64,000 bases of DNA from Candidatus Bathyarchaeota archaeon (GTDB lineage Archaea > Thermoproteota > Bathyarchaeia > 40CM-2-53-6): assembly GCA_963833125.1 (NCBI GenBank), contig CAWHWX010000001.1:288001-352000 (forward strand). The letters are read 5' to 3'. Positions 32,952-61,762 of the stretch are shown piece by piece (the stretch's first letter is position 1; each line of letters starts with the position of its first letter). Position numbers and translations under genes: made by a program. The notes beneath the pieces are model-generated. The model ran no database searches and was not told where the DNA came from. It was given only the letters and a program-made list of their open reading frames with translations.

Positions 32952-33038
32952 GTGTATGTGGTATTAATGAGGCGGCCGTTGGGATTCGGACCGTCGTCGT
33001 TCGTCGTCAGAAAAGTGTGTGTATAGCTGGTGCGCACA
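32952..33038 (+). repeat. Two tandem repeat sites (cores TATTAA and TATAGC)
   Basis: GTATGTGG-TATTAA-TGAGGCG and AGTGTGTG-TATAGC-TGGTGCGCAC joined by CCGTCGTCGTTCGTCGTCAGAAAA. Confidence 0.85.
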
Positions 33039-33054
33039 GTCCGGGTCTGGAATT

Positions 33055-33501
33055 CTAGGCTAGATTTTGGTGGGCAATCGTGTGAGAACTCCTGACGGGT
33101 ACGAAGAGTTGTAGTTCGGTTTGACTTCGGTAGAATTCTATGGAAGGTCTTGTCGGGTCAATGTCGTGGACTTTGACCAGTTCTTGATATAATTGGGGGA
33201 GTTGACCGTCGCGGATCTTCTTTTCCCAGTCCAGAATTTTGCGACGAGCGTATATTCCTCCTGGAATCACCCCGGTCTCCAATTGCATCTTACCTGGGTC
33301 GTCGGCGTCGATTCTTGCCACGGACGCGTAGTACTCTTCTCCGTCAGGGGTTTCGTGGAAGACGCCGTAGAATTTTCGACCCTTCAGAGTTGGAAGCTTG
33401 GATTCTAGCAAATCCATGGCCGCCGACGGACCTTTGCCTTTCATGTCTGCTTTGACACGCATGATTGGGATTTCGTTAAGTTCAACATAGGTGTCGTTCA
33501 T
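33055..33501 (-). CDS. GyrI-like small-molecule-binding protein
   Basis: FYG, YYASV, IPGGIYAR and RPSIEFYRS. Confidence 0.8.
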   Translation of the reverse strand: MNDTYVELNEIPIMRVKADMKGKGPSAAMDLLESKLPTLKGRKFYGVFHETPDGEEYYASVARIDADDPGKMQLETGVIPGGIYARRKILDWEKKIRDGQLPQLYQELVKVHDIDPTRPSIEFYRSQTELQLFVPVRSSHTIAHQNLA

Positions 33502-33538
33502 AGAGAACTTCGGCGTGACGTCTGATATTTATGAATTG

Positions 33539-33560
33539 GAAGATGACTCGTGTCATCTTC
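33539..33560. promoter_or_regulatory. Perfect 9-bp inverted repeat upstream of the GyrI-like promoter
   Basis: GAAGATGAC-TCGT-GTCATCTTC next to a minus-strand ATAAATA box. Confidence 0.45.
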
Positions 33561-33570
33561 TGGTTGCCAG

Positions 33571-33778
33571 TCATTTTTCTGTGGGTGGTATAGCTGGTGC
33601 GTGAAAATGAATTTGAACTGTCGTCGTTCGTCGTAAAGTGTGTGTGTGGTATCGCTGGTGCGAGCGTCGGAAATTGAACCTTCGGTTTTAGTGTGTGGTA
33701 TTAGTGATGCGAGCACCCGAAATTGAACCGTCTGTCAGGCGTAATTTTGCGTGTGTGCGCACCAGCTATGCCAAGCAC
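33571..33778. repeat. Cluster of four repeat sites (three direct, one inverted)
   Basis: Cores TATAGC (33581), TATCGC (33642), TATTAG (33691) and inverted CATAGC (33751-33778). Confidence 0.9.
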
Positions 33779-33812
33779 GAAATGAATCTCCTGAACAGAT
33801 TTTTTGGTATCA

Positions 33813-34583
33813 TTAAATTCGAGGGGAAACTGTCCAGGTCCGGTAGTCTAGGATGTGGCGGAATCCCATTTTGAGATACACTGGGAATCCGATGGGGCTT
33901 GCCTGCAATGATGAGAGATCGCATCCGTGTTGAAATCCATCTTTCACAGCGAAAGCGCTCATGGCTGCGCCGAATCCTCTACCCCTGAATTCTGGGATGG
34001 TGCTCACGCCGTAGATTCCTGCAACGTTATCGGTTTCGTACAGAATAGAGGTAGCTACCGGCTTACCGCTGCAGATTCCCAGATAGTACGTCAAGCCTTT
34101 CGTTGCAAGGCTCTGAGGCGTAGCTAAACGGTCGAAGAAATTTGGGTCAGACATCTGGAAACCGAGAGCTGCTGCTCGCTCCCAAGACAAGCGTTCGCTT
34201 ACGTCACGAACTTGGCGGATTTCCAAGTCGGAAGGCAGGGGTCGGAGGGTAGCTGCTTCCTTGGGCAAAATCATTTCTGGATCCCTCCTAAACCGCGTGA
34301 CCGGTACGTGCCGAGGTATCTCGTAGAAATCATCTCCAACCGAGGGAGGCACAACGATCTTCCATTCAGACCTTTGCTCAGCAAAGAAGCGCTTCACTCT
34401 CTCCAGAGTCTCAGGCCGCACACCAGCCTTGTCCGATACCAGAGCACAATTCCAGTCATTCAATAGGATAGGACTGCGCATACACATAACCCCCGGAAAA
34501 TACTCAATCGTACCTCCGCTCTCAGCTGCGAAGGCGGATGAAGCAGCGAAGAAATTACGCGTCACACGTTCTTCGGTTGACAT
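33813..34583 (-). CDS. GNAT N-acetyltransferase
   Basis: AGIYGVSTIPEFRGRGFG and LQASPIGFPVYLKMGF. Confidence 0.9.
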   Translation of the reverse strand: MSTEERVTRNFFAASSAFAAESGGTIEYFPGVMCMRSPILLNDWNCALVSDKAGVRPETLERVKRFFAEQRSEWKIVVPPSVGDDFYEIPRHVPVTRFRRDPEMILPKEAATLRPLPSDLEIRQVRDVSERLSWERAAALGFQMSDPNFFDRLATPQSLATKGLTYYLGICSGKPVATSILYETDNVAGIYGVSTIPEFRGRGFGAAMSAFAVKDGFQHGCDLSSLQASPIGFPVYLKMGFRHILDYRTWTVSPRI

Positions 34584-34615
34584 AATACCACGAAAAACAG
34601 TACCAGTATCCACCG

Positions 34616-35434
34616 CTACGTGGCGAGTGTTGCTTCTCCGTTTGGTTTGATTTCTATTTGATGCCAAGCCGAGTCATGAGGTTGTCCTCTGAGACTCCTG
34701 ATTCTCAGAAAGTTCTGGGCCTTCTCTTCTTTTTCCATTACTCTGATGTCTATAACTCCGTCCCAATCGGCTTCCATGCGTCGATACACCCATTCGGGAT
34801 GGACTCCGCGAACGAAGCCCTGTAAGGTGATACGGTTCGCTCTCCGCTCGTTTGGATTAACTCTGCTTTCCATCCACTCCACGTATGCTTTCTCGTCGTT
34901 GAATCGCATTTGCGAGGAACACGATTCGACCAATAACAAACTCCATCCGGCCATGTGTGTTTGCCCTACTGTGTCCCTTTCATAGACTTCCGGGCTCAAC
35001 TTTGTCCATTTGAGCCATTCGAGGCTGAGGTCTGAAACCTTCAAAGACCGGACTCTGACTCCCCCATCGATTTGTTCGAAGAGTCCTTCATGCCCTCCTT
35101 CAGTTCTTACACGGCCACCGGTGAGGGTTGCGGAATACCAGTCCTGGACTTCGAGACGTCCTTCCTTCAATGTCGCCGATACATTAATTTCCAAAGCCGA
35201 TAAGGCATCTAAGACATTATTCCTCGATCTTGCCATCGCCAAATAACCAACACTTCTGTTTTCCAGTAGAGTTTTCGCGGCAATAGTCGCGGCGACGGCG
35301 AACCATTGAGACTCAGGATCAAATTCAACGCCAAAGATCGTTGCAGGTTTAATTCCGCCCGGAATAAGTTGAGTTAGAAGAGGAATGTCAACGCGGCCAG
35401 CGGAAGGCAAGTTATACCTGACAAAAGTAGACAT
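34616..35434 (-). CDS. RAD55/KaiC-like RecA-fold protein lacking Walker A
   Basis: LIPGGI, EFDPESQW, DWYSATL, DGVIDIR and LRIRSLRG. Confidence 0.8.
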   Translation of the reverse strand: MSTFVRYNLPSAGRVDIPLLTQLIPGGIKPATIFGVEFDPESQWFAVAATIAAKTLLENRSVGYLAMARSRNNVLDALSALEINVSATLKEGRLEVQDWYSATLTGGRVRTEGGHEGLFEQIDGGVRVRSLKVSDLSLEWLKWTKLSPEVYERDTVGQTHMAGWSLLLVESCSSQMRFNDEKAYVEWMESRVNPNERRANRITLQGFVRGVHPEWVYRRMEADWDGVIDIRVMEKEEKAQNFLRIRSLRGQPHDSAWHQIEIKPNGEATLAT

Positions 35435-35497
35435 TCAACTAACCAAAAGCATTGACGGTCCAAGTTTTCAGCCAAGTGCGTGTAAGCATGATGTGAG

Positions 35498-36433
35498 TTA
35501 ACCGATAAGTATCTGAGCAAGCTGGTGTGGCTCAATGTTTCCGCCGGTTACGAGAAGCGCTACGTTCTTCCCCTGCAATTCGTCCCGGATTTTTGTGGCG
35601 GCGGCTGTTGAGGCTGCTCCTGATAACTCAGCTACTTGACCAGTAGTTGAGAAGATCGTTCTCACAGCTTCCATCATTTCCGCGTCGCTGACGAGAACGA
35701 CATCATCCAACTTCTCCTTTAGAAAACTGAACGGCAACTCATAGGCCTGTGAAGTAGCCAATCCCTCAGCCTTCGTCTTTACGCCATTAGTGGACGTAAT
35801 CGACCCGCTCTTCCATGACTTGTAAAAGGCTGGTGCACCTTCGGCTTGCACGCCAATCACTCTGATCTTCGGGTCGATGGACTTGTAGACGATACACGCC
35901 GAGGATGCCGCTGACCCGCCTCCGATCGGAGCGATCACAATATCCAAATCGGGCTGTTCTTCGATGACTTCCAAATGCATAGTGGCAACGCCTTCGAAGA
36001 GCAGCGGCTCATTGCTAGCATGGATGTACAGGTACCCATTCTGAGAAGCCAGCTTCTCCGCGTACTCACGTGCCTCATCATAGTAGCTTCCGTGGAAAAG
36101 AAGTTCTGCACCCAAATCCTTGACAGCCTCAGACTTTAGCTGAGGGACGCCGTGTGGCATAACAATCTTGACCTGTACTCCGAATAGCTTGCCTGCATAG
36201 GCTACTGACTGAGCGTGATTACCTGTCGACGCCGTAATGACTGTACGAGATTGGCCTTGCTTCACCAAGTTCTCAATAAAGCGCACACCTCCGCGAACTT
36301 TGAATGCCCGTGTGGGCTGGAGATTCTCCAGTTTGAGGAAGACCTCGCACCCAAGTAGTTTCGAAAGCCCTCTCGGGTGAATCAGAGGGGTCGGCTTCAA
36401 GTAACGATTAACGATTGTTCGTGCGACAAACAC
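35498..36433 (-). CDS. PLP-dependent threonine/serine dehydratase
   Basis: KLENLQPTRAFKVRG, ASTGNHAQ, PIGGGS and TGGN. Confidence 0.92.
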   Translation of the reverse strand: MFVARTIVNRYLKPTPLIHPRGLSKLLGCEVFLKLENLQPTRAFKVRGGVRFIENLVKQGQSRTVITASTGNHAQSVAYAGKLFGVQVKIVMPHGVPQLKSEAVKDLGAELLFHGSYYDEAREYAEKLASQNGYLYIHASNEPLLFEGVATMHLEVIEEQPDLDIVIAPIGGGSAASSACIVYKSIDPKIRVIGVQAEGAPAFYKSWKSGSITSTNGVKTKAEGLATSQAYELPFSFLKEKLDDVVLVSDAEMMEAVRTIFSTTGQVAELSGAASTAAATKIRDELQGKNVALLVTGGNIEPHQLAQILIG

Positions 36434-36615
36434 ATCGAGCAGACGTGGAATCTGAGATTGCGCCGATATTCATCACGCTCACCTTTCCCGTTGCTAATTT
36501 CCACTCCGATAAGAGCCTTCAACTAAAGAAGCTGTTCATTCGACAAACAAAATCACCGGCTCAGTTTCCAGTATTTTACCACAATCGAACCAAACCCTCG
36601 TGGAGACTTCCTCGG

Positions 36616-37503: not shown

Positions 37504-37530
37504 AGGGAGCCACAATAGGTTGATCTGATT

Positions 37531-40196: not shown

Positions 40197-40216
40197 CTGA
40201 AATGGTATACTTGGAG

Positions 40217-40248
40217 GTTCTCAAATGCCTGGTACATTGAGAACTTTT
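40217..40248 (+). terminator. Hairpin plus T-run between convergent genes
   Basis: GTTCTCAA...TTGAGAAC followed by TTTT. Confidence 0.35.
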
Positions 40249-40294
40249 CAGCGAGATTCAGAGTTTCTGTGGCAATTGTGCATTTCGGTCTTTC

Positions 40295-40314
40295 GCGTGT
40301 GGGTCTGGTGACTG
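40295..40314 (+). repeat. Degenerate copy of the repeat site
   Basis: GCGTGTGG-GTCTGG-TGACTG. Confidence 0.3.
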
Positions 40315-40337
40315 TTACCGGTACGGTTTCGTTTCAA

Positions 40338-41207
40338 TCATCCAATAATCGCGATCATGAGTAGGCCTGTGATCACGCAGGCGAGAGCGACCAGTTGAAG
40401 CCGATTCAACTTCTCACGAAGCAATATCACGGCGGCCGTCACTGTGACGAGCGGATAGGCACTGGATATTGGAGCAACAAGCGACACGAAGCCCATGCTA
40501 AGCGCAAATGTGAGAGCGAGTGTGCCAGAGACATTAAGGGCAAGGCCAGTCGCTCCGAAAACCCAAGCAGTCCATGACGGCTTCCCAACATTCGAATGTC
40601 CTTGTCCGCTTCGAAACCACATGTAGGCTAAGGGCACCGTGACTGCTGAGATTACGTAAAAGCCGAAAACATTTCCCACACCAATTTTGCTGACCGTAAT
40701 TTTTGCGGTCAGACTCCATAAACCCCAGAGTGCGAACGCCAACAGCGCGAAGAACAAGGATCTTCTCGGGATGGAATACCGTGAATGCGGATTCCGCTCG
40801 TAGGACAAAGCTACGATGCCACAGATTATAGCAGCAACTCCAACTAATTCCGCACCCGTCAGAGACTCTGAAAGGAACGCAAGCGCGCCGATGACAGTCA
40901 AGCTAGGATAGGCGGCTGATATGGTTCCCACGATTGCGACTTGACCGTCCACCACTGATTCTAAGAAGCAGATGTAAGCAGCTGTCCCGACAAAAGCTGA
41001 AGCCGCTGCAAGAGCACCGTATTCTAAGTCAACAACTGCGTTGTTGTGCCAAAAGAGGAAACCTGCAAAATACGCCATGCCCTCAATAACCACTACAAGC
41101 CCGGCTATGCGCGCTACTCCAAGCCTCGGAGTGCTTAGCTTGGCAAAGACATTACCGAAACCCCATAGAAACGCGGTCAGTATCGCAAAAACGAACCAGT
41201 ACTCCAT
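40338..41207 (-). CDS. EamA/DMT transporter
   Basis: Two EamA repeats; APISSAYP..LREKL. Confidence 0.9.
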   Translation of the reverse strand: MEYWFVFAILTAFLWGFGNVFAKLSTPRLGVARIAGLVVVIEGMAYFAGFLFWHNNAVVDLEYGALAAASAFVGTAAYICFLESVVDGQVAIVGTISAAYPSLTVIGALAFLSESLTGAELVGVAAIICGIVALSYERNPHSRYSIPRRSLFFALLAFALWGLWSLTAKITVSKIGVGNVFGFYVISAVTVPLAYMWFRSGQGHSNVGKPSWTAWVFGATGLALNVSGTLALTFALSMGFVSLVAPISSAYPLVTVTAAVILLREKLNRLQLVALACVITGLLMIAIIG

Positions 41208-41474
41208 GAAACCATACCGTCCGCGACTCGTTCCAGGCACACTCCACTCGGACTCCTTAGACTTTAGTGCTTCCGGCCGAGAGACTACTACCATCGTCGA
41301 TTTTCATTTGGAATCGGCTGGATCCTTCACTCCGTTGTTGCTGTTGGTGTAACTCAGCTGTTCTAAGGTTGTGAATTGTTATAGTCTAAGAGTAGAGTTT
41401 ACCAGCCGCTTACGTAAATACTGTAACGGCCAGTATCCTATACTTCTAACCTGCCGTAAAAGGAGCATTCACAT

Positions 41475-41530
41475 GTGTGTGGTATAGCTGGTGCGCGCAC
41501 ACACACACACTTATTGAAGGAACGACGATC
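41475..41530 (+). repeat. Repeat site (core TATAGC), palindromic type
   Basis: GTGTGTGG-TATAGC-TGGTGCGCGCACACACACACAC...GAACGACG. Confidence 0.9.
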
Positions 41531-41567
41531 CAAAATATGACGGAGCACGAGGTGCGTATTCGGTGAG

Positions 41568-42035
41568 TTATCGATGTCTTCTATAGTCCTTCTCTAGCGC
41601 GGCCGCATACTTTGTCCAGACGTCATGAATAGATTTCAGATAATCTGATTTCGACGGATAGTCTCCGATTTTCCATCGTTCAATAAACTTCATGTCCAGT
41701 CTAGTCTTCGCGGAACCGAGTTTCGATAATCTGTATTCTCCCTCTTCGTCATCTTCGTCTCCTCTGGAGTCTAGATGCCAGGACCTGGGTGGGTGTAGAG
41801 TGACTATGTTCACGGCGGTCCGGGTTTTTCCACCGCTCTTGTAGCGAATTGTATAGATCACTCTTTCTTTCGTCTTCTCGAGTATCTTCCTCCTGTTCCC
41901 TGAACCAGTTATCTTCGGGTCGGTGTCACGGAAGTCTGTACACCACCGGTAAGCGAATTTTAATGGCGCGTTGAGCACCTTGGTTGCATGGTAGGTTCTT
42001 ACGTCAGGTTTCTTCGCAGACACGTCGCAAGCCAC
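41568..42035 (-). CDS. SRPBCC-like hypothetical protein
   Basis: APLKFAYRWCTDF; C-terminal W..Y..ALE helix. Confidence 0.6.
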   Translation of the reverse strand: MACDVSAKKPDVRTYHATKVLNAPLKFAYRWCTDFRDTDPKITGSGNRRKILEKTKERVIYTIRYKSGGKTRTAVNIVTLHPPRSWHLDSRGDEDDEEGEYRLSKLGSAKTRLDMKFIERWKIGDYPSKSDYLKSIHDVWTKYAAALEKDYRRHR

Positions 42036-42121
42036 CGGTGTTAACCCGTTTCCGTTGTGTCGTTATAAATCGCTTACGGAATTTCCCATCCTCAAATCTT
42101 GGCAGACGTTGAGTTAGCTTA

Positions 42122-42228
42122 GTGTGTGCGTGGTATGCTGGTGCGCACACACACTTTTCTGACGACGAACGACGGTCCGATTTTGGACGCCCTCACCAGT
42201 GGATACACGCACAAAAGAAAAACGACGG
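42122..42228. repeat. Back-to-back repeat sites (direct core GTATGC; inverted core ATCCAC)
   Basis: TGTGCGTG-GTATGC-TGGTGCGCACACACACTTTTCTGACGACGAACGACGGTCC then CTCACCA-GTGGAT-ACACGCAC. Confidence 0.9.
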
Positions 42229-42288
42229 CAGTGGATCTCTAATACCGTAAGCAACTCTCAAATACTCCAATCATGCGAAGTCTGATTT

Positions 42289-42738
42289 ATGACGCAGAAG
42301 TCTGATGTTATCAACCTTCAACTACTAATTCGTAAATCTCCTGAATCGGTTCGTGCTTGGTGGACCGATCTTCCGGAAGACTATCAAGCGAAAGATCCGC
42401 GGGAACAGCCCTACCGAATCGTGACTACCCGTAGGTTATCAAACGGGCGCGAGCTTCGCACGTATTGGCGAATGCCGGATGGTTCAGCATTCGATTTCCA
42501 AGAGATACTGACTTTGAAACCGGATGGGAGTTGGACCTTTGAAATCCCAAACGGCATGGGCTTCCGCATACTCGACGAATTTCGAGCCGAATCAGTTCCA
42601 ACCGGAACTAAACTCACCATTCACAGTACTCTGACACCGCTAGACGCTTCCGCTGCCAGCCGTATTTCGGCACAGGAGGAGCTAATGGCCGAAGGTTGGA
42701 AGGGCGCGGCAGAAATTTGCGAACATGACTCACCTTGA
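42289..42738 (+). CDS. SRPBCC-like hypothetical protein
   Basis: SPESVRAWWTD, GTKLTI and GW. Confidence 0.6.
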   Translation: MTQKSDVINLQLLIRKSPESVRAWWTDLPEDYQAKDPREQPYRIVTTRRLSNGRELRTYWRMPDGSAFDFQEILTLKPDGSWTFEIPNGMGFRILDEFRAESVPTGTKLTIHSTLTPLDASAASRISAQEELMAEGWKGAAEICEHDSP

Positions 42739-42805
42739 TCAGCTATCAGTTAACATTAACAACAGGTTAATGACGCCGGCCACTTAGATCGACGCAATCG
42801 CGCTG

Positions 42806-43543
42806 ATGAGCTTGTCGAGTTCTTTACGCGCAAAGATTGTCGAAACAGGAAATCTCGATTTAGCGGTTCTATCTGAGATTTTCGGCCGCATTCCTTACGG
42901 AAGAGTGATATTAGCTCTGTATGATCCTGATAGCCAATTTAACTCATTGATGGTCAACGTCGCAGCTGAGCACCTGAAGATCGGGCGTGATCTCCTCTAT
43001 CTTGCCTCATCTAGGCCCACAGTCGAAGTCAGGCAGCAATTCAATGGTCTTGGAGTGAACGTGGCGGAATACGAGGCGAAAGATAATGCGGTTCTCTTTG
43101 ATGATTATTCCACGCAAATGGGCGTGAAGTCACCTGAGAGATATCACTCCACGACTTCGAATCTCAACGAACGGTCCATTACCATAGGTCAGTCGGCACC
43201 CCAATGGCCGGCGGGAACGTTGGTTATTGTAGAGTCCTTCTCGAGCATGGCGGTTAATGAGGAGAACGTCTTTGCGAAGTTCTCGAAACGGGCCGTGGGA
43301 GTATGGAGAGCTCGAGGAGCAGTCATGATAGTTGGTCTGGCAGTCGATATACATACGTTACAATTCTATCAGGAAATGAAACTGCTATGCGATGGAGTGT
43401 TCGAGGTAAGACTAGTTGAACATCACGCAGAGATGATCAATTCGATCAGGTCCAGGTCAATGAAGGGGCAGATGTCAGACTCCAGATGGCGACGGATTCT
43501 ATTCGACAATAAGATGAAAGCTTCACTCCAATTCCTCAAATAG
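42806..43543 (+). CDS. RAD55/KaiC-like RecA-fold protein lacking Walker A
   Basis: IPYGRVIL, LYDPDSQF, CDGVFEV and RSMKG. Confidence 0.75.
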   Translation: MSLSSSLRAKIVETGNLDLAVLSEIFGRIPYGRVILALYDPDSQFNSLMVNVAAEHLKIGRDLLYLASSRPTVEVRQQFNGLGVNVAEYEAKDNAVLFDDYSTQMGVKSPERYHSTTSNLNERSITIGQSAPQWPAGTLVIVESFSSMAVNEENVFAKFSKRAVGVWRARGAVMIVGLAVDIHTLQFYQEMKLLCDGVFEVRLVEHHAEMINSIRSRSMKGQMSDSRWRRILFDNKMKASLQFLK

Positions 43544-43571
43544 CGGAAAGAGCAATCTTACAAAGTTTTGC

Positions 43572-43631
43572 ACCGTCGTCGTTCGTTTTCATTTGTGTGT
43601 GGCATTAGTGGTGCGCACCCCACCAGAAAAT
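43572..43631 (+). repeat. Repeat site (core CATTAG)
   Basis: ACCGTCGTCGTTCGTTTTC...GTGTGTGG-CATTAG-TGGTGCGCAC. Confidence 0.9.
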
Positions 43632-43695
43632 GCTGAAACAATTCGTTCGGACTTTTCGAATGATGTACGTGATTTTATGTTTTCCTGTGTGCTCA

Positions 43696-44022
43696 TTATG
43701 GACGGGGTTGTTTTAGTTCAACGAATAAGACATGAGTGTTTGTCTCTCCGATATTTTCGCCGATATGCGATTGTTCATCGTTCCAGACGACTTCTCCTCC
43801 CTTAATATCCACAACTACAGACTTACCATTATCGAAAGTAAGTTTCCTCTTGAAAGCACTCAGCATATAGAGCACAGCGTCCGGGTGATGATGCAGCTTT
43901 GTCTTATCGCCAGGTTTGTCTTTGTAATCGATAACTCTTACACGGTCATTTTCGAAAATGACCTTATACTTATCCGGATCAGTTGTTACGGCGTGCGGTA
44001 AAATATTCCTTGCTGCTGACAT
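43696..44022 (-). CDS. Cupin-like protein
   Basis: FENDRVRV, HHHPD, HIGEN.G and VELK. Confidence 0.85.
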   Translation of the reverse strand: MSAARNILPHAVTTDPDKYKVIFENDRVRVIDYKDKPGDKTKLHHHPDAVLYMLSAFKRKLTFDNGKSVVVDIKGGEVVWNDEQSHIGENIGETNTHVLFVELKQPRP

Positions 44023-44113
44023 AACATAAAAAACCACATACGTACACTAAAACCTTTATTGAGTCCAAAGTGACGGCCTCGCATATCATCGGCTTTTTTT
44101 CGGTTGATTTTTA

Positions 44114-44147
44114 GTGTGTGTGGGTATGCTGGTGCGCACACACACAC
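44114..44147 (+). repeat. Repeat site (core GTATGC), palindromic type
   Basis: GTGTGTGTGG-GTATGC-TGGTGCGCACACACACAC. Confidence 0.92.
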
Positions 44148-44183
44148 GAAAACGGGATCGACGGTGGAACGATGGAGTCGTAG

Positions 44184-44732
44184 TTAGACTTGCCTTGGAT
44201 TAGAGGTTCTGCGTCGGATAATTCCGTACACGATTGCAGTTAGAAACACTAGGATGGCCAGACCGTATGGGTATTCTCCGATTGAGGATAAACATGTGGA
44301 AACAGTGGTCAGAGCGACGGTGGCGGTACTCGTGACGGTGGTTATCGCCTGCTCCAAGACATTCACGAAGCTCGACGCCAGAATAAGCCCGTCAGAGAAT
44401 TGAATCGTCTCTACACAATGTACCCCAATTGGGTATCCAGAAGTAGAGATTGCTATCGGACCAATGTTACCCGAATTGTCAACAAAGGCCTTGTCCGTAA
44501 AAATATTGTTTAGAACGGACCCTGTACAGACTCCGGCGATGTCCGACCAGACCCTAACCGCAACTTCATCAGGCGCCTGGATTGTGTATTCGCCGCCGGA
44601 GACTTGGAAGGTATCCCCTTGAATGACCGTGTTGGGGGTAACGTTGATCGTTTGGACGGCATATACCTTTCCAGCATTAAGAAAAACCAGAATGATTACG
44701 ACTAGGGCTATTGTGGCTTGATTTCTAACCAA
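44184..44732 (-). CDS. Surface protein with PEF-CTERM-like tail
   Basis: Signal peptide; Thr-rich linker; IGEYPYG-TM-RRR. Confidence 0.78.
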   Translation of the reverse strand: MVRNQATIALVVIILVFLNAGKVYAVQTINVTPNTVIQGDTFQVSGGEYTIQAPDEVAVRVWSDIAGVCTGSVLNNIFTDKAFVDNSGNIGPIAISTSGYPIGVHCVETIQFSDGLILASSFVNVLEQAITTVTSTATVALTTVSTCLSSIGEYPYGLAILVFLTAIVYGIIRRRTSNPRQV

Positions 44733-44894
44733 AAGCGAAAACCGAGCGAGCCGTCACCGACAGAGGCAATATAACACTTTTGCGTGATGAGGATCTTCTT
44801 GACTAATCTTGATTCCCATTTTTTCTTGATGGTGCTAACCAGCCTGTCCACAGACACAACAGAATCTGGTTTTTCATCGTCCTCTTTTGGTGTT

Positions 44895-44924
44895 GTGTGT
44901 GTGCACCAGCATACCCACACACAC
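44895..44924 (-). repeat. Repeat site (core GTATGC), inverted
   Basis: Reverse complement reads GTGTGTGTGG-GTATGC-TGGTGCACACACAC. Confidence 0.92.
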
Positions 44925-45055
44925 TTTTGCGCCGTATGAACGAAACAAGTTATTTGACTTGGGCCGAAAGGCGAACTTGAGAAGTGTCTAGGTGTATCGC
45001 ACAAGAACCTTAAACCCTACAATCACAGAATGGCGTTGGTTCAGGGAGTCGCGAT

Positions 45056-45911
45056 TTGAGGCATGCCATGATCGAGGTGCTGTTGACGATCGCCCTTTTC
45101 CTGTTTTTGATTAATGCTCGGCCTGCATATGCCTTTGCGACCCTAGTTCAACAAAGCAACTTCGGTTGTTCTTGCAATAGTGTTAGTGGCTCCCCTCCCA
45201 CACTGCGCATGTTTCTCTCCTTCTCTCCGGCACTGTGACGGCCGGGGACGTGTTGGTTGTCGGGTTGGCATTCTCTCATCTAGGGAGTCCTTTCCTCATT
45301 GCGTGTGGGTCTCCTATGGTGACGGTTGTCTGTGTGACGGATGCCCATGGCTCACAGTTCACGCAAGCCGTAGCGACGGGGGCGACGGGTAGTTCAGCTG
45401 TGCTCATTTATACGGCTACCATTCCACCGTGTGGAAGTTGCATCCCCTCAGATGAGTTTACTGTAACATTCTTGCGCGTCGCACTTTCATGGATGTGTAC
45501 GCGTATGAAGTGTCTGGCGTAAGCACCGTCGGCCTCGCAACCGGCACGGGTTCAGGGTCCGGAACGATTGTTTCCACATCACCGGTCAGCTTCACAGCGG
45601 GTGCCTTTCTTCTCGGATTCAATATCCATGATTCCGGTGCGTCGGTTACCGCTGGGTCGGGGTTTACACTCAACAATGACCTCCTCGGGATCTCAGCCGC
45701 CGAGTATGCTGACCCGGTCTCTTCGCCAACAACCTTCCCAGCCATCTTAAGCGGCAGCGTGAACTGGGCTGAGGCAGGAATAGCTTTGAATCCGGCACTT
45801 GTTCCTCCAATATCTGAGTATCCTGTGGGGCTACCCTTACTCGCTCTCCTAGCTACGGTCGCCTACGGTGTGGTAAGACGCAGAACTTGTGACAGTCCAA
45901 AGAAGATGTGA
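45056..45911 (+). CDS. Surface protein with PEF-CTERM-like tail (apparent frameshifts)
   Basis: Signal peptide in 45056 ORF; TAGDVLVV beta-sandwich; ISEYPVG-TM-RRR in 45489 ORF. Confidence 0.7.
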
Positions 45912-45931
45912 TGACTCATCCTTCAGTTCAA

Positions 45932-45955
45932 GTGTGTGTGGGTCTAATGGTGCGC
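45932..45955 (+). repeat. Repeat site (core GTCTAA)
   Basis: GTGTGTGTGG-GTCTAA-TGGTGCGC. Confidence 0.92.
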
Positions 45956-46043
45956 TTACCAACCGCGGAGAACTTACACAAGCGAAGCCTAGAGACTTTT
46001 CATCCTTTCACACACACAAAAATAATTGATTCTCTCGCAGAGT

Positions 46044-46991
46044 CTAGAACTGATATGTCGTACCGACGCTGTTTTGGATGAATGCGCCTGGTGCTGTCCG
46101 CATTATTTCATATACCGCTTTCAATCCTGTACAGTGGCATGGAACGAGGACGCGAGGCTTGAGCGCCGTTAGCTCTTCAATGGTCTTTGGGATTATCGGT
46201 TCAAAGATTCCTCCTGTCAGATGCATTCCGCCTATTACTGCATAGATTGTGTCTTGTCCAGTCAGATCTTTCGCATAATTGATTGTGTTAATGATTCCGG
46301 AATGACCGCAGCCTGTGATGACGACGAGCCCCTTGTCTTTCACATTTAAGACCAGAGCCTGGTCGTCTTGGATTAGGGGATCGTTTTCCATTTTTCCGTC
46401 GATTTCCGCGTAATGAATTGGGAACCCCTTCTCGAATTCATTGATCCTCGGAATTTCCCCTGTGACAAGAATTCTACCATCCAACCGCGGGCTGGGACCA
46501 CTGTCTTCTACGATTTCGTAACCCGCATCTGTCAAGAGCGCCTTGCTTGGAGGGGGAAGCGGCAACGTTCTTCCATCGGGGAATTTTACCATCCTGTTCC
46601 TGAAAGCGTACGGGTGCAAGAGTAACGGCATCTTTCTCGCAGCCGGCATCTTTCGCTTTATGTTTAGAAGTCCACCTGCATGGTCTATGTGGCCGTGGCT
46701 TGAAACAACTGTTTCACAATGGGATAAGTCGAAATCGAGGGCTTCTACGTTATGTACGACGGCAAAGGGGTCTAGTCCGGAATCGAATAGAAGACTACGT
46801 TTCCTTCCGTCGAGTTCCAGAGTGACAAGCGCTGAAAAGCCATGCTCTGCAATCAGCGGCCTTTCAAACCAATCATTTCCCATCATTTTGGGTCTCTTAG
46901 CCACATCGGTTGTTGCGAGTAGAACATCGACCGTGTTGTCCACTAAGCAGGTGACCTCTGCTTTTTCTACTTCTTTCAGGCTAACTGGCAT
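46044..46991 (-). CDS. MBL-fold metallohydrolase (dihydropterin synthase-like subfamily)
   Basis: AEHGFS, FDSG, SHGHIDHAGG, GCGHSG, GGMHL and PCHCTG; start set at ATG 46991. Confidence 0.9.
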   Translation of the reverse strand: MPVSLKEVEKAEVTCLVDNTVDVLLATTDVAKRPKMMGNDWFERPLIAEHGFSALVTLELDGRKRSLLFDSGLDPFAVVHNVEALDFDLSHCETVVSSHGHIDHAGGLLNIKRKMPAARKMPLLLHPYAFRNRMVKFPDGRTLPLPPPSKALLTDAGYEIVEDSGPSPRLDGRILVTGEIPRINEFEKGFPIHYAEIDGKMENDPLIQDDQALVLNVKDKGLVVITGCGHSGIINTINYAKDLTGQDTIYAVIGGMHLTGGIFEPIIPKTIEELTALKPRVLVPCHCTGLKAVYEIMRTAPGAFIQNSVGTTYQF

Positions 46992-47027
46992 GACTAAAAT
47001 TAGCGTAGAATGATTAATTTGATTTTT

Positions 47028-47073
47028 GTGTGTGTGTGGGTCTAATGGTGCGAGCGAGGCAAATTCAACCGTC
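47028..47073 (+). repeat. Repeat site (core GTCTAA) with tRNA-like right arm
   Basis: GTGTGTGTGTGG-GTCTAA-TGGTGCGAGCGAGGCAAATTCAACCGTC. Confidence 0.92.
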
Positions 47074-47213
47074 AATAAATTACGAAACTTTCGTGCAAAG
47101 ACTCCTTGCGATTTATTTAATTAGAATGAGAGACCAAAATGGAACGTTAGTGCGAACATGTCCTTCGGAAAATTATGACTCCCAGGTTGCCTAAAATAGA
47201 TGATGCGCAGGGA

Positions 47214-54238: not shown

Positions 54239-54296
54239 GACAGTCGTCAAGCCATATTGTAGAATATCGTTCGAGACGCGTTTTCTCGGCTGTTGC

Positions 54297-57106: not shown

Positions 57107-57442
57107 TTACGAGGTTGTGGTTTGCTCAGCTTCGACGCTCTCGTCTTCTTCAAACTCGCCTTCGTCTTCTCCTTGCGAGAGCGTGATTTCGATCGTTGAA
57201 ATGTTGCCCCTAGTACCGTCGTAACGGGTGACGTCTTCTGAACCAAGGTTTATGCTTTTAATGAGTACGTCTTTGAGAAAGCTATGCCTTAGCATTTGTA
57301 CGGTGTCGATGGCTTTCTCTATCGCTTGACCCCTCGCCCTGACCATAACTTCCTCGTTGCCGGAATTGAAGAGCGTTACGCAGGCTGTGACGTAGTTCAT
57401 GACGGGTTTCTTGCCAATTCGAACGAGGTTCGGTTGACTCAT
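57107..57442 (-). CDS. albA: Alba chromatin protein with acidic C-terminal tail
   Basis: IGKKPVMNYV, ARGQAIEKAID and ISTIEITL. Confidence 0.93.
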   Translation of the reverse strand: MSQPNLVRIGKKPVMNYVTACVTLFNSGNEEVMVRARGQAIEKAIDTVQMLRHSFLKDVLIKSINLGSEDVTRYDGTRGNISTIEITLSQGEDEGEFEEDESVEAEQTTTS

Positions 57443-57574
57443 CGAACACACCAAAACAAAATTGTTGGATTACTCGTGAAGGGCGTTGCGATTCAGGGTT
57501 TTCTGGGAAGGACCATCTCGCGTTCTATTAAGATTGTTCGACGAAGAATTCGCTATTAAAATAGTCTGCTCTCT

Positions 57575-58564
57575 CTAGCCACCAATGGTGTGCATTGGTC
57601 GGATATGTTCAAGCCCTTCATATTTCTTGAGCAATGTTTCAACACCAGGCGCCTTACGCAGAACTGCGTCGCGCATGAAATTCAGAATGGCTTCATCGGA
57701 TGCTCCGCCTCTAAGCAGGGGTCTTAGGTCGAATCCAGTTTTGTCAAAGAGACACGGAACTATTTTGCCATCCGCGGAAAGACGGATTCTGTCGCAATCG
57801 GAGCAGAATGGTTCGGTTATTGAAGTAATTATTCCGATCTCACCTTTTCCGTCTTGAAACTTGTAGAGCTTTGCAGTGCTTCCGGCTTGGCGTGGAACTG
57901 GGGCCAGCGGGTAGTGTTCTCGAATTCTTTCCACAATCTCATTGCCGCTCACTACCTTATCCATGCCCCAATGTTGTTGACCATCGAAGGGCATGTATTC
58001 AATGAATCTCACCGTGACGTCGCCCGCTATCGCAAGGGAAGCCAGGTCCGCAACCTCGTCATCATTGCAGCCGCGAATGATTACGGCGTTTATTTTGAGA
58101 GGTTTGAAGCCGCTTGATTTCGCAGCTCTTATTCCAGCGACAACGGTCTCGAGGACACCGCCTCCCGTTATCTGGCTGAACCTTTCGGGCTTGAGGCTGT
58201 GAAGGCTTACAGTGACTCCCTTCAACCCGGCCTTTCTTAGGGCCGAGGCTTTCTCAGACAGGAGGAATCCGTTCGTGGTCATGCTGAGCTGGCGGAGTTT
58301 GGGAATCTTAGCTAAGAGAGCGACTAGTTCCTCGATGTCGCGGCGCATTAAGGGTTCGCCGCCACTCAACCGTATGTTCTCTACACCCATACCCACGAAG
58401 AGAGATGCAACTCGCTGAATCTCCTCATAGCTGAGAATCTCGCTCTGCGGCAACCAGACCGGGTGTGTGGGCATGCAGAACTGACAGCGGAAGTTACAGC
58501 GGTCCGTAACCGAAATTCGGAGCTTACGCGCAACGCGCCCATAAGAATCGGTTAGAACCGGCAC
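57575..58564 (-). CDS. moaA: GTP 3',8-cyclase
   Basis: CNFRCQFC, SGGEP, CxxC..C C-terminal cluster and terminal IGG. Confidence 0.95.
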   Translation of the reverse strand: MPVLTDSYGRVARKLRISVTDRCNFRCQFCMPTHPVWLPQSEILSYEEIQRVASLFVGMGVENIRLSGGEPLMRRDIEELVALLAKIPKLRQLSMTTNGFLLSEKASALRKAGLKGVTVSLHSLKPERFSQITGGGVLETVVAGIRAAKSSGFKPLKINAVIIRGCNDDEVADLASLAIAGDVTVRFIEYMPFDGQQHWGMDKVVSGNEIVERIREHYPLAPVPRQAGSTAKLYKFQDGKGEIGIITSITEPFCSDCDRIRLSADGKIVPCLFDKTGFDLRPLLRGGASDEAILNFMRDAVLRKAPGVETLLKKYEGLEHIRPMHTIGG

Positions 58565-58643
58565 TAGACCTAAGCCGCCCTATGTAGCATGCAGAAAGTG
58601 CATCATTTAAAGCCTAATTTTCCCCATCAAGAGTGAACCAGAT

Positions 58644-59108
58644 ATGAGTCCATCAGGACCTCCGCTGGTGTCCTCATCCTCTGAGCAAATTGTATTGTTC
58701 GTTTGCGTGGAGAATACCTTTCGTAGTATCATAAGTGAAGCTATTTTCAACACATATGCACCAAAAGGCTGGCATGCAGAAAGCGCCGGCGTGCAACCCA
58801 GCGAAGCCATCAACCCAGTCGCCATCGAGCTCCTACGAGAGATTGGAATCGAAATCGGCTCGAAAAAGCCTAGGTCGGTCACGCCGGAGTTAGTCGCCGG
58901 TGCAACTCGGATCGTCACTTTCGGCTGCTTAGACCGCTGTCCCATCGGTGCTAAAGAAAAATCGGAGGATTGGCCTATCCCCGGGAGCACGACCGGGAAG
59001 AATGGCTCTCTGAGGAGCCCTGTCGAGTTACATGCGATTCGCGGTGAACTAGAACGCCGGATTCTCAAGTTAATCCATGAAATCGAACGAAGCACACCAG
59101 CTCAGTAA
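58644..59108 (+). CDS. LMW-PTP/arsenate reductase-like protein
   Basis: FVCVENTFRS, ESAG, GC..CP and DWPIP. Confidence 0.8.
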   Translation: MSPSGPPLVSSSSEQIVLFVCVENTFRSIISEAIFNTYAPKGWHAESAGVQPSEAINPVAIELLREIGIEIGSKKPRSVTPELVAGATRIVTFGCLDRCPIGAKEKSEDWPIPGSTTGKNGSLRSPVELHAIRGELERRILKLIHEIERSTPAQ

Positions 59109-59164
59109 ATACGTCAACCACCATCGAAACAATATATCGGCGGGGTTAAGGTAATGGTGCAGCC

Positions 59165-59416
59165 ATGCCTAGAAAACTTCCGTCCTCATACTTGCGGAAA
59201 CTGAACGAGGAACAGAAAAGAACCAAAGTTTACGCTGAGAAAGCGGCAGAAAAGAAACTGGAGCCAAAGGATCCGGATTCGGGAAAGCTCAAAGGGTTTA
59301 CGGGGATTTGTCAAACGTGTGGGTCTCGCACGAAATTCACTGTAGACAAGTTTGGGTACGCGACATGCGGAAACTGTAGGGCAATTGCCAGTTACAAGTT
59401 CGGGCACGTAGCGTAA
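59165..59416 (+). CDS. Small basic zinc-finger protein
   Basis: CQTC...CGNC; Lys-rich N-terminus. Confidence 0.6.
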   Translation: MPRKLPSSYLRKLNEEQKRTKVYAEKAAEKKLEPKDPDSGKLKGFTGICQTCGSRTKFTVDKFGYATCGNCRAIASYKFGHVA

Positions 59417-59434
59417 TCTGAGTTCGATAGGAAG

Positions 59435-60100
59435 CTACGTAACCACAGGTTGCTCGAGAGCATCAACACTCGCTTCATCTAGATCAAGATCGAAGACTTC
59501 CTCGAACCTCCTTCGAACCTGCTCTTTCACATCACGGAACTTCAGGTCTGTCCCAAGCAGGGCTTTCATCGAGGTCATGGTTGAACCAGAGAACCCGCAA
59601 GGGTTAATCTTGTGGAAGTAACTCAAGTCCGTGTTCGCGTTGAGCGCGAATCCGTGAAAGCTTACCCAGTTTCTGATCGCTGCCCCGATTGAAGCAATCT
59701 TCTTGCTTCCTACCCATACACCAGTCTGCTCTCCTCGCCCCCCAGCTATCCCAAACTTCCCAATCGTCAGAATGAGAGTTTGCTCAATATTTCTTAGGAA
59801 TCGATGAATGTCTCGCTCTCTCTCATTCAAGTCTAGAATCGGATAACCCACTACCTGTCCCAAGCCGTGGTACGTCCATTGGCCCCCGCGCTCTATTCGA
59901 TAGACTGGGATGCCATCTATTTGGGGAGGGATGTCCCCAGACACGGCTTTGCCTACTGTGAATACATGTGGATGCTCCACCAAGATCAAGCTATCCGGAA
60001 TCAGTTTCCTCGCTCGAAGATCAACGAGCTTCCGCTGAAGTTCCCAGACTTCTGCATACTCTCGTTGTCCGAGGTCGAGTAGATTTCCTTTCGTTGTCAT
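59435..60100 (-). CDS. lipB: Lipoyl(octanoyl) transferase
   Basis: EHPHVFT.G, RGGQWTYHG.GQ, KIASIG, HGFALN and INPCG. Confidence 0.9.
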   Translation of the reverse strand: MTTKGNLLDLGQREYAEVWELQRKLVDLRARKLIPDSLILVEHPHVFTVGKAVSGDIPPQIDGIPVYRIERGGQWTYHGLGQVVGYPILDLNERERDIHRFLRNIEQTLILTIGKFGIAGGRGEQTGVWVGSKKIASIGAAIRNWVSFHGFALNANTDLSYFHKINPCGFSGSTMTSMKALLGTDLKFRDVKEQVRRRFEEVFDLDLDEASVDALEQPVVT

Positions 60101-61488
60101 TTTTGTAGGATGTGAATCGCTTTTCCTTTTGCTGCCTCGGCTGCCTCCATCACACTTTCTGGTAAAGTGGGGTGGGGGTGAACTGTGAGTCCAATGTCTT
60201 CTAATGTTGCTCCCATTTCTATGGCGAGAGCGGCCTCGCTGATTAGGTCAGAGGCTTCGGTACCAACTATGTGAACACCGAGAACCAAGTCGGAGTTCTT
60301 GTCGGCCACTATCTTGGTGAAACCCTCGGTTTCCCCTGCGAGGAGTGCGCGTCCCAAGGCTGTAAACGGAAACTTCCCAACGATAGGTTCGTACCCCTTT
60401 TCTTTTGCTTGCGATTCGGTGAGGCCGACAGTTGCGATTTCTGGGTCGGTGAATATGACTCCTGGGATCGCATGAAAGTCAGCTTCACTGCTCATTCCCG
60501 CGATAACCTCCGCGGCTACAATCCCTTCCTTGGAGGCCTTGTGTGCGAGCATGGGTGGTCCCACCACATCACCGATCGCATAGATTCCTGGTGAGCTGGT
60601 TTGCATCTTCTTGTTGACTTGAATGAACCCGTGGGAATCAGTTTGGACCCCGGCCTTTTCCAAGCCGATTTCGTCGCTATTTGGACGCCTTCCGACGGTG
60701 ACCAAGACCTTGTCAGCCTCAAATGCGCCTTCCTTCCCGTCCTCTAGGGTGGCGTAGATTTTCCCGTCACGATATTCCTTTGCCTTGGATTTGACATGAT
60801 ATTCAATGCCAAGTTTTCGAAGTGACCTTTCGACGACTCTCACGAGGTCAATGTCGGTTCCCGGGAGAAGTTGGTCTAACATTTCGATTATGGTCACCTT
60901 CGTTCCAAGTTGGGCGTACATAGTTCCCATCTCCAATCCAGTCACGCCGCCCCCGATTATGCCCAACTTTTTCGGGACTTGCTGAAGTGAGAGTGCTTCG
61001 GTTGAGCTGATTATGCTGGTTCCGTTGAACTTGAAAGTGGGAAGGTCGAAGTAACGCGAACCCGTTGCTATGATGATGTCCTTTGCTTCAATGATCTCCG
61101 TCCCAGTCGACTCTTAACTTCAAGCTGGTGAGCGTCAATGAATTTCCCGGATCCTTTTACGAGCTTGACGTTGTTTCCTTTGAGTAGGTAATCGATACCC
61201 GATACTAAGCCGATCGACTACACCCTGTTTCCATGCTTGCACTTTAGCAAAATCTACGTTAACCCCGGTTACCTCTAGGCCAATCTGTTTGGCTGCTTCT
61301 ACCCGCTGTTTTAGTTTCGCGACGCGGATAAGTGCCTTCGAGGGTATACATCCAATGTTTAGGCATACACCGCCTAGCTTTTCTTTTTCTATGAGGATCG
61401 TTTCCTTTCCGAGCTGCCCGAGTCTTATGGCTGCAACATAACCGCCCGGCCCACTCCCAAGCACAGCAGCTTCCGTCTTCTGTGTCAT
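60097..61488 (-). CDS. lpdA: Dihydrolipoyl dehydrogenase (frameshifts near 61100-61200)
   Basis: GSGPGG, GGVCLNIGCIPSK, IIGGG, IGDV and HPHPTLPE. Confidence 0.93.
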
Positions 61489-61714
61489 TTTAACCCCTAA
61501 ATTCAGATTTATGAGGCGAATGTTAGGCTTAATCCTAAAAGTTTGCTTCGACCCTCCCGAACCTCCCGTTCGGATTTCTCCAGCCGTTCAGCCACCTCGT
61601 CGAGTTCGGCTAGGTACTGGATCTCAAATCACCGATTGCTCGCAGAAATCTAGACGTATGGCAAAGCTACGCTAACCTGGTCTACCGTAGCGGTTTAATG
61701 GTAGTCCAGACTGA

Positions 61715-61762
61715 GTTCAAATTCAGTTGCCCGCACCACTAGACCCACACACACTGAACGAC
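61715..61762 (-). repeat. Repeat site (core GTCTAG) with tRNA-3'-like arm
   Basis: Plus strand reads GTTCAAATTCAGTTGCCCGCACCA-CTAGAC-CCACACACAC. Confidence 0.9.

Follow-up and report, generated by a model that had tools for sequence, protein, structure and literature searches.

Repeats shared with the 3′ end of tRNA-Gly genes as probable casposon landing sites in a genus of Bathyarchaeia

We analysed a 64,000-nucleotide stretch of the genome of a Candidatus Bathyarchaeota archaeon (the window, G000:C1:288001-352000, where G000 is this genome, C-numbers are its contigs and other G-numbers are other genomes), and in particular an intergenic repeat family with the invariant core GCGCACCA-N6-CC(AC)n, some copies of which are preceded by an arm that resembles the 3′ end of a tRNA. 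G000 is a 3.07-Mb metagenome-assembled genome (MAG) in 39 contigs, with a completeness of 87.8% and a contamination of 7%. A preliminary description of the window had listed seven tRNA-like copies as 24-mers, parsed as 8+5+7+1+3 nt, and all seven were exactly the earlier strings when re-extracted. Positions below refer to the window unless a contig is named.

Copy 1 (24-mer 32968-32991) lies within 32954-32998 on the minus strand, where a GTCCGAAT-type arm is followed by a decayed duplication, CGCCTCATTAATACC and ACATACAC. It is connected by the conserved linker TTTTCTGACGACGAACGACGAC (33022-32995) to a core copy, GCGCACCA-GCTATA-CACACAC, at 33015-33045 (minus strand; a weak profile match, E=1.9, C1:321033), the two forming a doublet. 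Copies 2-4 (33595-33618, 33656-33679 and 33705-33728) occupy 33581-33735 on the minus strand as three tandem units of a T-loop arm plus CGCAyCA-N6-CC, with start-to-start distances of 61 and 49 nt, and a weak (GT)n-type core stands in the opposite orientation at 33748-33778 (plus strand; profile E=1.6, C1:321752-321773). Repeat comparison and the profile further identified a (GT)n-type junction, GTGTGTGTGCGC-GCACCA-GCTATA-CCACACAC, at 41474-41506 (minus strand), which metagenome contigs match by the core alone and diverge from at 41474 and 41506, and a copy with a G-rich arm, GGTGGGGTGC-GCACCA-CTAATG-CCACACAC, at 43594-43626 (minus strand). The (GT)n-type junction at 42120-42154 (minus strand; N6 GCATAC) is a direct twin of 44123-44145 (23/23 nt), 1,991 bp apart, and a different site lies between it and its twin junction at 44113-44146 (minus strand); this pattern is the expected trace of a composite unit moved whole. 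A linker and copy 5 (42175-42198), with a GTCCGATT-type arm and a decayed duplication segment, span 42147-42215 on the plus strand. The junction at 44113-44146 is the homology breakpoint between two gene cassettes, A (43582-44134) and B (44137-44910), and a (GT)n-type junction inverted to it (44894-44925, plus strand; N6 GCATAC; 97% complementary) is the breakpoint between cassettes B and C.

Copies 6 and 7 head small duplication-bounded elements of 1.1 kb and 3.1 kb. At copy 6 (47046-47069, within 47030-47076 on the minus strand), the duplication CGCACCATTAGACCC follows the T-loop arm GGTTGAATTTGCCTCGCT, and the distal duplication, CGCACCATTAGACCC with (AC)n, lies at 45932-45954 (minus strand), identical to 47030-47052 over 23/23 nt at a spacing of 1098. 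The mini-element between them (45955-47037, minus strand, approximately 1.08 kb) comprises inverted ends and one gene, without a casposase. Its terminal inverted repeats are 22 nt long (46009-46030/47013-47034, 77%), a second inverted pair matches at 15/15, and the gene (46044-46994) encodes a hydrolase of the metallo-beta-lactamase fold (PF00753). The mini-element also contains a 54-nt multi-copy insert (45955-46008); the segment 45955-46026 (approximately 55-70 nt, between the (GT)n end and the 15-mer) occurs once in G000 but several times in relatives (86-97% identity), G003 having six copies or more. At copy 7 (61715-61738, within 61714-61758 on the plus strand), the duplication CGCACCACTAGACCC has its twin 3,099 bp downstream at C1:352831-352845, approximately 830 nt past the window end, where it is preceded by a GC-rich GGCGGCGGGGGCGGC arm; a gene for a trypsin-like peptidase and two unknown open reading frames (ORFs) lie between the two.

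A search of the window for GTTCAAWT-N12-ACCA with at most one mismatch yielded five matches against 0.76 expected, a number reached by none of 100 dinucleotide-preserving shuffles; two further copies carry GTCCGAAT or GTCCGATT heads with degenerate CCA ends. Within 60 nt upstream of the cores, all 13 occurrences of GTTCRA in G000, and 46 of 55 in other genomes, stood exactly 18 nt ahead of the G of GCACCA, which is the distance from G53 to G71 of a tRNA. The geometry proposed in the preliminary description thus holds, and its T-loop-to-CCA pattern withstood shuffling. The comparison with the tRNAs of the genome was less telling: the 24-mers were 16-20/24 identical to tRNA 3′ ends of G000, the best match of copy 1 being the C16 tRNA-Gly(UCC) at its 3′ end (20/24), but the medians were already 14-16, so that this identity, taken alone, discriminates weakly. 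It is the downstream sequence that links the repeat family to particular tRNAs.

In the window, ARAGORN detected no tRNA gene and Rfam no tRNA at the gathering score, and the tRNA model gave no match at E<=10 on 32800-33900, the region with four of the seven 24-mers. The T-stem was fully paired in just 4 of 62 tRNA-arm copies and missing from the other 58, and the folds of five single tRNA-arm copies (2-4, 6 and 7) were not clearly better than those of shuffled sequences (z -2.1 to +1.2). None of the seven 24-mers is a tRNA gene, and the likeness is limited to the 3′ strand of a tRNA. These results bear on the possibility that the repeats act in RNA as mimics of a tRNA 3′ end, serving as a processing or stability tag, a substrate of RNase P/Z or the CCA enzyme, a primer-binding site, a terminator or a promoter-proximal regulator. 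Conservation within the repeat is highest in the T-loop and ACCA, A/T-rich runs flank the palindromic copies, and co-directional sites often stand 30-200 nt ahead of genes, as such a role would allow. However, the distance from site to start codon is variable, no reverse transcriptase was found in five genomes, the downstream motif is missing after the orthologous tRNA-Gly in 5 or 6 of 14 genomes, and neither folding nor covariance models lend support. We regard such mimicry as a highly improbable explanation of the repeats, although an additional role in RNA may exist; the preliminary description had ranked a primer-binding site or a processing tag as less likely.

A repeat profile built from 32 exact copies and run on G000 gave 77 matches at E<=10 and 56 at E<=0.05, and the sites are concentrated on C1 (96-125 kb and the window), on C14, C16 and C28 and on a number of short contigs. 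From G000 and its relatives, 301 distinct sites were collected, and a larger set comprised 339. Among the 301 sites, the core is preceded by (GT)n in 193, by a tRNA-like arm in 62 (consensus aaaaacgacGGTTCAAATTccGntGCtC) and by other sequences, including GC-rich arms, in 46. A C precedes GCACCA, giving CGCA, in 330 of the 339 sites; a conserved linker (ACGACGAACGACGAC) is present in 39 of the 339, and GGTTCRA follows 22-90 nt downstream in 51 of the 301. Of 22 other genomes of the genus, 19 contained the core pattern, with 16-43 exact copies each over the whole chromosome in near-complete relatives; of 18 genomes from other families of the order, one contained it. A reversed control pattern had no match in the same genome sets. 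When all species genomes were scanned, 73 of the 80 listed loci were titled Bathyarchaeia or Bathyarchaeota, three 'archaeon RBG_16_50_20', and four belonged to bacterial-titled MAGs. The last (L011, L045, L022 and L031) bear the titles Acidoferrum, Methylomirabilota and Terriglobia, and the Acidoferrum-titled MAG (L011, L045; G010) is placed in the genus of the window, which suggests that its title is wrong or its contigs are mis-binned. Eleven IMG/VR matches to a 16-base core lacked a (GT)n or T-loop arm and look like chance.

Adjacent sites have N6 in common in 9 of 86 direct pairs and 4 of 83 inverted pairs, compared with 2.9% of random pairs, and in pairs with one common flank N6 accompanies the upstream flank, the downstream flank or neither. 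In four DNA sequencing runs, many contigs matched the cores of approximately 33 nt alone and then diverged. Core-to-core 'joints' in such contigs, with sides of no more than 21-34 nt apart from one of 250, were not accepted as excisions. The sharp core edges and the changing company of N6 would suit a selfish or structural intergenic palindrome resembling repetitive extragenic palindromes (REPs) or miniature inverted-repeat transposable elements, which would spread by itself, offer homology for host recombination and owe its tRNA likeness to a preferred insertion point. Such a palindrome would also agree with a copy number of approximately 56 per genome and with strictly intergenic placement, ORFs of at least 120 aa containing none of the 56 sites compared with 73% of random segments. 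On the other hand, a Y1/RAYT transposase (PF01797) had no match in this 87.8%-complete genome and TnpB none over the cut-off, reverse transcriptase and serine resolvase were absent from five genomes, and the palindrome would leave unexplained both the perfect 15-bp repeats at the casposase elements described below and the tRNA arm at their proximal side. We consider a self-spreading palindrome improbable.

The tRNA genes of G000 contain many introns and encode the CCA; without intron search, ARAGORN called seven tRNAs in the genome, and the tRNA model gave 19 matches, most of 90-150 nt. Identical copies of one tRNA-Gly, which ARAGORN misses, lie on C18, C6 and C29. The C18 copy (L114:7838-7994) scored 34.4 bits with the tRNA model, with the anticodon loop CUGCCAC (Gly-GCC) and inserts of 58 nt in the D-loop region and 31 nt in the variable region. 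On all three contigs, the gene ends in GGTTCAAATCCCGGCGGCCGCACCA, followed by CCAGAC-CCACACACAC, and past the end of this C18-type gene stand a linker and then a partial tRNA-arm copy. A further tRNA, at C16:463649-463744, has the 3′ end GGGTCCGAATCCCGGCGGCCGCACCA-ACTTAC-TCACACACA and is the best match of both GTCCGA-type window copies. ARAGORN called it Gly(UCC) after removal of an 18-nt insert, and among its deletion variants Gly(UCC) was the commonest call (258), with Ala(TGC) second (204). The tRNA-Gly genes and the window copies align in register, and the genes continue into N6-CC(AC)n. Of the two tRNAs proposed in the preliminary description as the source of the repeat, Gly and Leu, the former is therefore supported by shared 3′ sequence and the downstream motif.

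Of 14 genomes of the genus, 13 have an identical 3′ end of the orthologous tRNA-Gly(GCC), and G022 differs by one substitution. The (AC)n motif follows this gene in approximately 8 of the 14, and unrelated sequence follows it in G021, G018, G007, G001, G012 and arguably G013. At C29:4440-6377 (L121), a tRNA-Gly fragment that runs from the upstream flank through the first exon into the beginning of the first intron lies 1.7 kb upstream of the full copy, with a gene for an NHL-repeat protein between them; its homology stops within the intron, and it resembles the tRNA-fragment scattering described for Caldiarchaeum.

A Cas1 search of five genomes found the protein in G014 only, in two places, both within site-rich regions. 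These two proteins are 404-407 aa long and share 60% identity; Cas1 proteins in elements of the relatives measure 404-410 aa and match PF01867 with E-values of 1e-49 to 1e-53. The best solved relative of the G014:C1 protein (407 aa) was 6opm_A (E=3.9e-74, full length), whereas Cas1 structures from clustered regularly interspaced short palindromic repeat (CRISPR) systems reached 5.9e-24 or weaker. The 6OPM structure is the casposase-DNA complex of Methanosarcina mazei (PMC6977970). No Cas2 family was found among the scanned ORFs neighbouring the G014 Cas1 genes. Of the 22 other genomes of the genus, 14 had casposase homologues. By count, 13 copies are near full length without stops (in seven genomes) and 31 matches are partial, of which 11 contain stop codons; G017 alone had 13 matches. 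In G011, G013 and G014, 10 of 11 casposase matches lay no more than 5 kb from an exact motif copy, compared with an expectation of approximately 15% or less (a hand comparison).

Three casposase-bearing elements are bounded by perfect 15-bp direct repeats (15/15) of the form CGCACCA-N6-CC. In the G014:C1 element, the duplication CGCACCATTAGACCC recurs 16,297 bp apart and the inverted ends are approximately 60 nt long (local score 55). Its proximal end reads ...GGTTCAAATTCGAGCGCT plus CGCACCATTAGACCC, then (AC)6TTTGAAACGGTTGG... as the element start, and its distal end reads ...CCAACCGTTTCAAA(GT)7G plus CGCACCATTAGACCC, then (AC)5 and the flank. The G004:C45 element has the duplication CGCACCAGCTGACCC, 7,158 bp apart, and GC-rich inverted ends of approximately 50 nt (local score 46); its proximal 15-mer runs directly into the element without (AC)n, and (AC)n follows the distal one. 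The G013:C3 element has the duplication CGCACCACTATACCC, 8,629 bp apart, with weak inverted ends (score 12). In all three, a tRNA arm stands at the proximal copy and a (GT)n or G/GC-rich arm at the distal copy, and the distal copies repeat the 15-mer plus (AC)n without the T-loop arm. This layout indicates that the arms are element ends and the core is a duplicated target. Perfect 15-bp duplications flank these three casposase elements of the relatives and two elements of G000, in agreement with the earlier view that the sites were amplified by serial integration. The G014 elements (G014:C3; G014:C1, L187/L188) contain defence-type cargo, namely, a TIR-domain protein and an HNH nuclease in one, and AIPR, an N6/N4 DNA methylase, a DndB-like protein and HATPase proteins in the other.

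The motif on tRNA-Gly genes and the variable DNA after them could also be taken as relic attachment (att) sites of a tyrosine integrase, by 'gene capture' of the SSV or pNOB8 kind. The preliminary description had argued in this direction, with a tRNA-targeting integrase acting at an attB crossover, tRNA-arm copies as hybrid attL/attR sites and the palindromic (GT)n...(AC)n copies as attP-like. Integrase genes (PF00589) do exist in G000 (12 matches), and the tRNA 5′ fragment on C29 recalls an archaeal case reported in PMC3293823. However, none of the 12 matches lies on the window contig, C18, C6 or C29, none of the ten ORFs around the C18 tRNA-Gly encodes a recombinase, the C28 integrase is approximately 5 kb from the nearest site, and G018, which is 98% complete, contains 29 motif copies and no PF00589 match. 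In five relatives, PF00589 showed no association with the sites. An intact tRNA followed by N6 and the motif was thus found as the description had envisaged, but without PF00589 nearby, and the enzyme lying within the elements is a Cas1-type casposase. The direct repeats comprise just 15 bp plus (AC)n instead of the whole T-loop-to-CCA block, which speaks against such an integrase, and the palindromic copies are read instead as a right end, the duplicated target and the next left end. An origin by tyrosine integrase appears to us improbable.

Taken together, we consider it probable that the repeats are attachment scars of casposon-type transposons, integrated by a casposase whose natural target is the 3′ end of tRNA-Gly. 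The 18 bp or so encoding the T-loop (tRNA positions 52-69, GGTTCAAAT...) would act as a recognition 'leader', and the next 15 bp, CGCACCA-N6-CC, would be cut in a staggered manner and duplicated upon insertion; these would take in tRNA positions 70-76 with the encoded CCA and 8 nt of the trailer. Copies that have a tRNA arm would be landing sites consisting of leader plus duplication, either at tRNA-Gly genes or ectopic without a tRNA body, copy 1 being a degenerate example and copies 6 and 7 the proximal sites of their elements. The copies with (GT)n or GC-rich arms would be distal junctions, in which the duplicated 15-mer joins the right end of one element to the (AC)n left end of its next, older neighbour. 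Repeated insertion and the movement of composite units would then yield arrays of small accessory-gene cassettes separated by sites.

This arrangement parallels the published casposon targets. The minimal target of the Aciduliprofundum boonei casposase is the 15-bp duplication plus the adjacent 18 bp in tRNA-Pro's T-psi-C loop, and tandem casposon arrays with one duplication segment between neighbours are both expected and observed (PMC5137440). In M. mazei, the duplication is 14 bp long and starts with a conserved CGCA that overlaps the last 4 bp of tRNA-Leu, and the upstream tRNA sequence is essential for integration (PMC6977970). In the Bathyarchaeia repeat, the conserved GGTTCAAAT block begins 18 bp upstream of CGCA, and CGCA would fall on tRNA positions 70-73, in register with the M. 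mazei target. By this analogy, the T-loop arm would be recognized by the casposase, and the 'drifting middle' of the 24-mers would fall between the two blocks that the enzyme is expected to read. The single-gene cassettes were presumably moved in trans. One element family would carry the leader plus 15-mer just inside its end and may so have spread the ectopic leaders; the conserved linker, the downstream GGTTCRA and the doublet after the C18 tRNA-Gly are suggestive of such a family.

Several observations weigh against an origin from casposons. No Cas1 was found in G000 (87.8% complete) and hence none in the window, so that the window copies would be footprints or non-autonomous elements. A flanking 15/15 pair was detected at only 3 of 13 casposase loci within the DNA fetched. 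In the G014:C3 element (L186:7557-16645; inverted ends of 55 nt at 80%), the cores are inverted at both ends (10/15) without a duplication; two loci with casposases of 38-42% identity carry no site; and in most cassettes the inverted ends do not exceed the (AC)n/(GT)n runs in length. PolB was absent from the 39 ORFs scanned in four elements, a set made up of the longer ORFs and, for the 16-kb element, of part of them, and the largest ORFs of the 7-8.6 kb elements are approximately 410 aa; these are therefore not canonical self-synthesizing casposons. N6 differs in 77 of the 86 adjacent direct pairs. Finally, a 15-bp duplication cannot copy a T-loop arm, so that the approximately 60 ectopic arms, the ACGACGAACGACGAC linker and the units at 33581-33735 would require the additional step of leader-carrying elements, and copies 1-5, in the doublets 32954-33045 and 42120-42215 and in the tandem units, are of this kind, which duplication does not account for.

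The cassettes of the window lie in a 6.9-kb accessory island (40204-47137), which has a site in every intergenic space; in G016 and G019, the same core genes flank no such island. AAATGG, which is not a repeat site, stands at both island borders and occurs once at the G019 join, suggesting that the island as a whole came or went by a route other than the repeat sites. The cassettes recur at different loci in relatives: 44137-44910 in G019 (96.8%), 44894-45887 in G016 (93%) and 43582-44134 in G002 (87%). Identities at other loci in relatives reach 93-97%, compared with 76-88% for core genes, and the homology of the cassettes ends within the repeat. In a second array, at C1:94-112 kb, cassettes are 89-95% identical to other loci of G013, G015 and G016, adjoining sites, with additional breakpoints at decayed or half sites. 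At an isolated site at C1:151.9 kb, the left and right flanks map to separate G016 loci. Cassettes have thus been exchanged between species.

Genes flanking the sites encode GNAT, EamA, glyoxalase, DinB, nitroreductase, DoxX and CBS proteins, secreted proteins and KaiC-like/MEDS paralogues, and clustering of the flanking ORFs yielded only accessory enzymes and secreted proteins. Single small accessory genes bounded by sites (GNAT, glyoxalase, DinB, nitroreductase, EamA and a weak Cass2) and exchanged among species are what an integron-like cassette system with tRNA-derived attC/attI sites would also produce. No integron integrase was found, however, PF00589 being absent from the contig and from G018 altogether; in addition, sites and genes occur in both orientations, and the boundaries are target duplications with inverted element ends. 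We consider an integron-like system extremely improbable.

The KaiC-like/MEDS paralogues (approximately 240 aa; 42806-43543 on the plus strand and 34616-35434 on the minus strand in the window) often have a site at both ends, and 13 of their 25 genomic copies lie within 1.5 kb of a site, compared with 3.4% of the genome. They match PF06745/PF14417 only weakly, show no Walker A motif by eye and are treated as cargo, not as the recombinase. Frequent cargo between sites are small Ser/Thr-rich secreted proteins (32419-32862, plus strand; 44184-44732, minus strand; 45489-45911, plus strand; L125:4219-5052), which end in PEYP(L/V)G, a hydrophobic stretch and an RR(K/R) tail; this ending looks like a sorting signal. 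A 148-aa protein encoded between repeat sites at 33055-33501 (minus strand) has a weak match, below the cut-off, to Cass2, an 'integron-associated effector binding protein' family. A conserved module with a TATA-like box, CCCCAATTTACCGGTAyATATAAC, stands ahead of several tRNA-arm sites (C11:4780-4812, C14:44769-44800, C9:3885-3917 and, in G014, L188:5540-5600) and could be a promoter or another element end. Elsewhere in the window (17116-17304 and 17643-17720) there are a 42-nt exact direct repeat 117 nt apart with an adjoining 28-nt repeat, and a run of seven 9-nt tandem units (CTACGGnAA); all are unrelated to the repeat family.

The machinery of CRISPR adaptation is considered to descend from casposons. 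A more far-reaching version of the casposon origin, which we hold only tentatively and consider rather unlikely, is that the genus harbours a polymerase-less casposase family resembling insertion sequences, with many autonomous copies bearing defence cargo, single-gene or empty mini-derivatives moved in trans, and elements with their own landing pad that spread insertion sites into cassette arrays. The tandem units at 33581-33735, each with a leader, a 15-mer and a short insert, would then be arrays of short insertions made by a casposase, and would stand as a natural link between the target of a transposon and the leader-repeat array of CRISPR. In this soil and peat genus of Bathyarchaeia, tens of target/duplication copies per genome and up to 13 casposase matches occur together with polymerase-less elements, single-gene mini-elements and free-standing leader-plus-duplication targets. 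If the elements are active, they would offer a natural system for the reading of the tRNA T-loop 'leader' by a casposase, for the origin of non-autonomous derivatives and for the multiplication of target copies, a step needed between a transposon target and a repeat array. The sites also coincide with synteny breakpoints and contig ends in these MAGs and mark a flexible gene pool exchanged between species. A limited literature search found no account of casposons in Bathyarchaeota; PolB-less or miniature casposons may be in print elsewhere.

Among known systems, REP/REPIN sequences with RAYT share the short intergenic imperfect palindromes, often in inverted doublets, but differ in that G000 has no Y1 transposase and its repeats have tRNA-derived arms and flanking duplications. 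Integron cassettes with attC resemble the small, promoter-less-looking accessory genes each bounded by an imperfect palindrome, but differ from the present case by the lack of IntI, the junctions of duplication plus inverted end and the mixed orientations. The archaeal tyrosine-integrase elements (SSV, pNOB8 and pTN3) have in common the tRNA 3′-end target, variable downstream islands and scattered tRNA fragments (PMC3293823), whereas here no integrase is associated and the repeat is 15 bp instead of the tRNA 3′ half. The CRISPR leader-repeat junction likewise has a two-part target, an upstream leader and a duplicated segment, with insertions beside the leader (PMC5137440), and the tandem units at 33581-33735 superficially resemble leader/repeat units with short inserts; on the other hand, no Cas2 was found among the ORFs scanned next to the G014 Cas1 genes, G000 has no Cas1 match, and what is inserted is an element or a constant linker instead of varied spacers.

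The closest parallel is with the family 2 casposons of M. mazei and A. boonei, which share with the Bathyarchaeia elements the closest solved protein (the M. mazei casposase), insertion at the very 3′ end of a tRNA gene, a 15-bp duplication starting with CGCA with a T-loop segment of approximately 18 bp directly upstream, terminal inverted repeats and duplication segments between tandem elements (PMC6977970, PMC5137440, PMC4779613), in addition to the HNH nuclease in one Bathyarchaeia element. In the published accounts drawn on here, casposons are rare, large, always PolB-encoding and present in one to a few copies per genome. The Bathyarchaeia elements differ by a tRNA-Gly target with encoded CCA, by four elements without detected PolB, by a cargo of defence-type and accessory genes, by dozens of target/duplication copies per genome with up to 13 casposase matches in one, by ectopic leaders without a tRNA and single-gene mini-elements without a casposase, and by their host, the Bathyarchaeia. 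By target, duplication, inverted ends and enzyme, the repeat family and its elements probably belong with the casposons, as a polymerase-less, high-copy and cassette-forming variant of the Bathyarchaeia.

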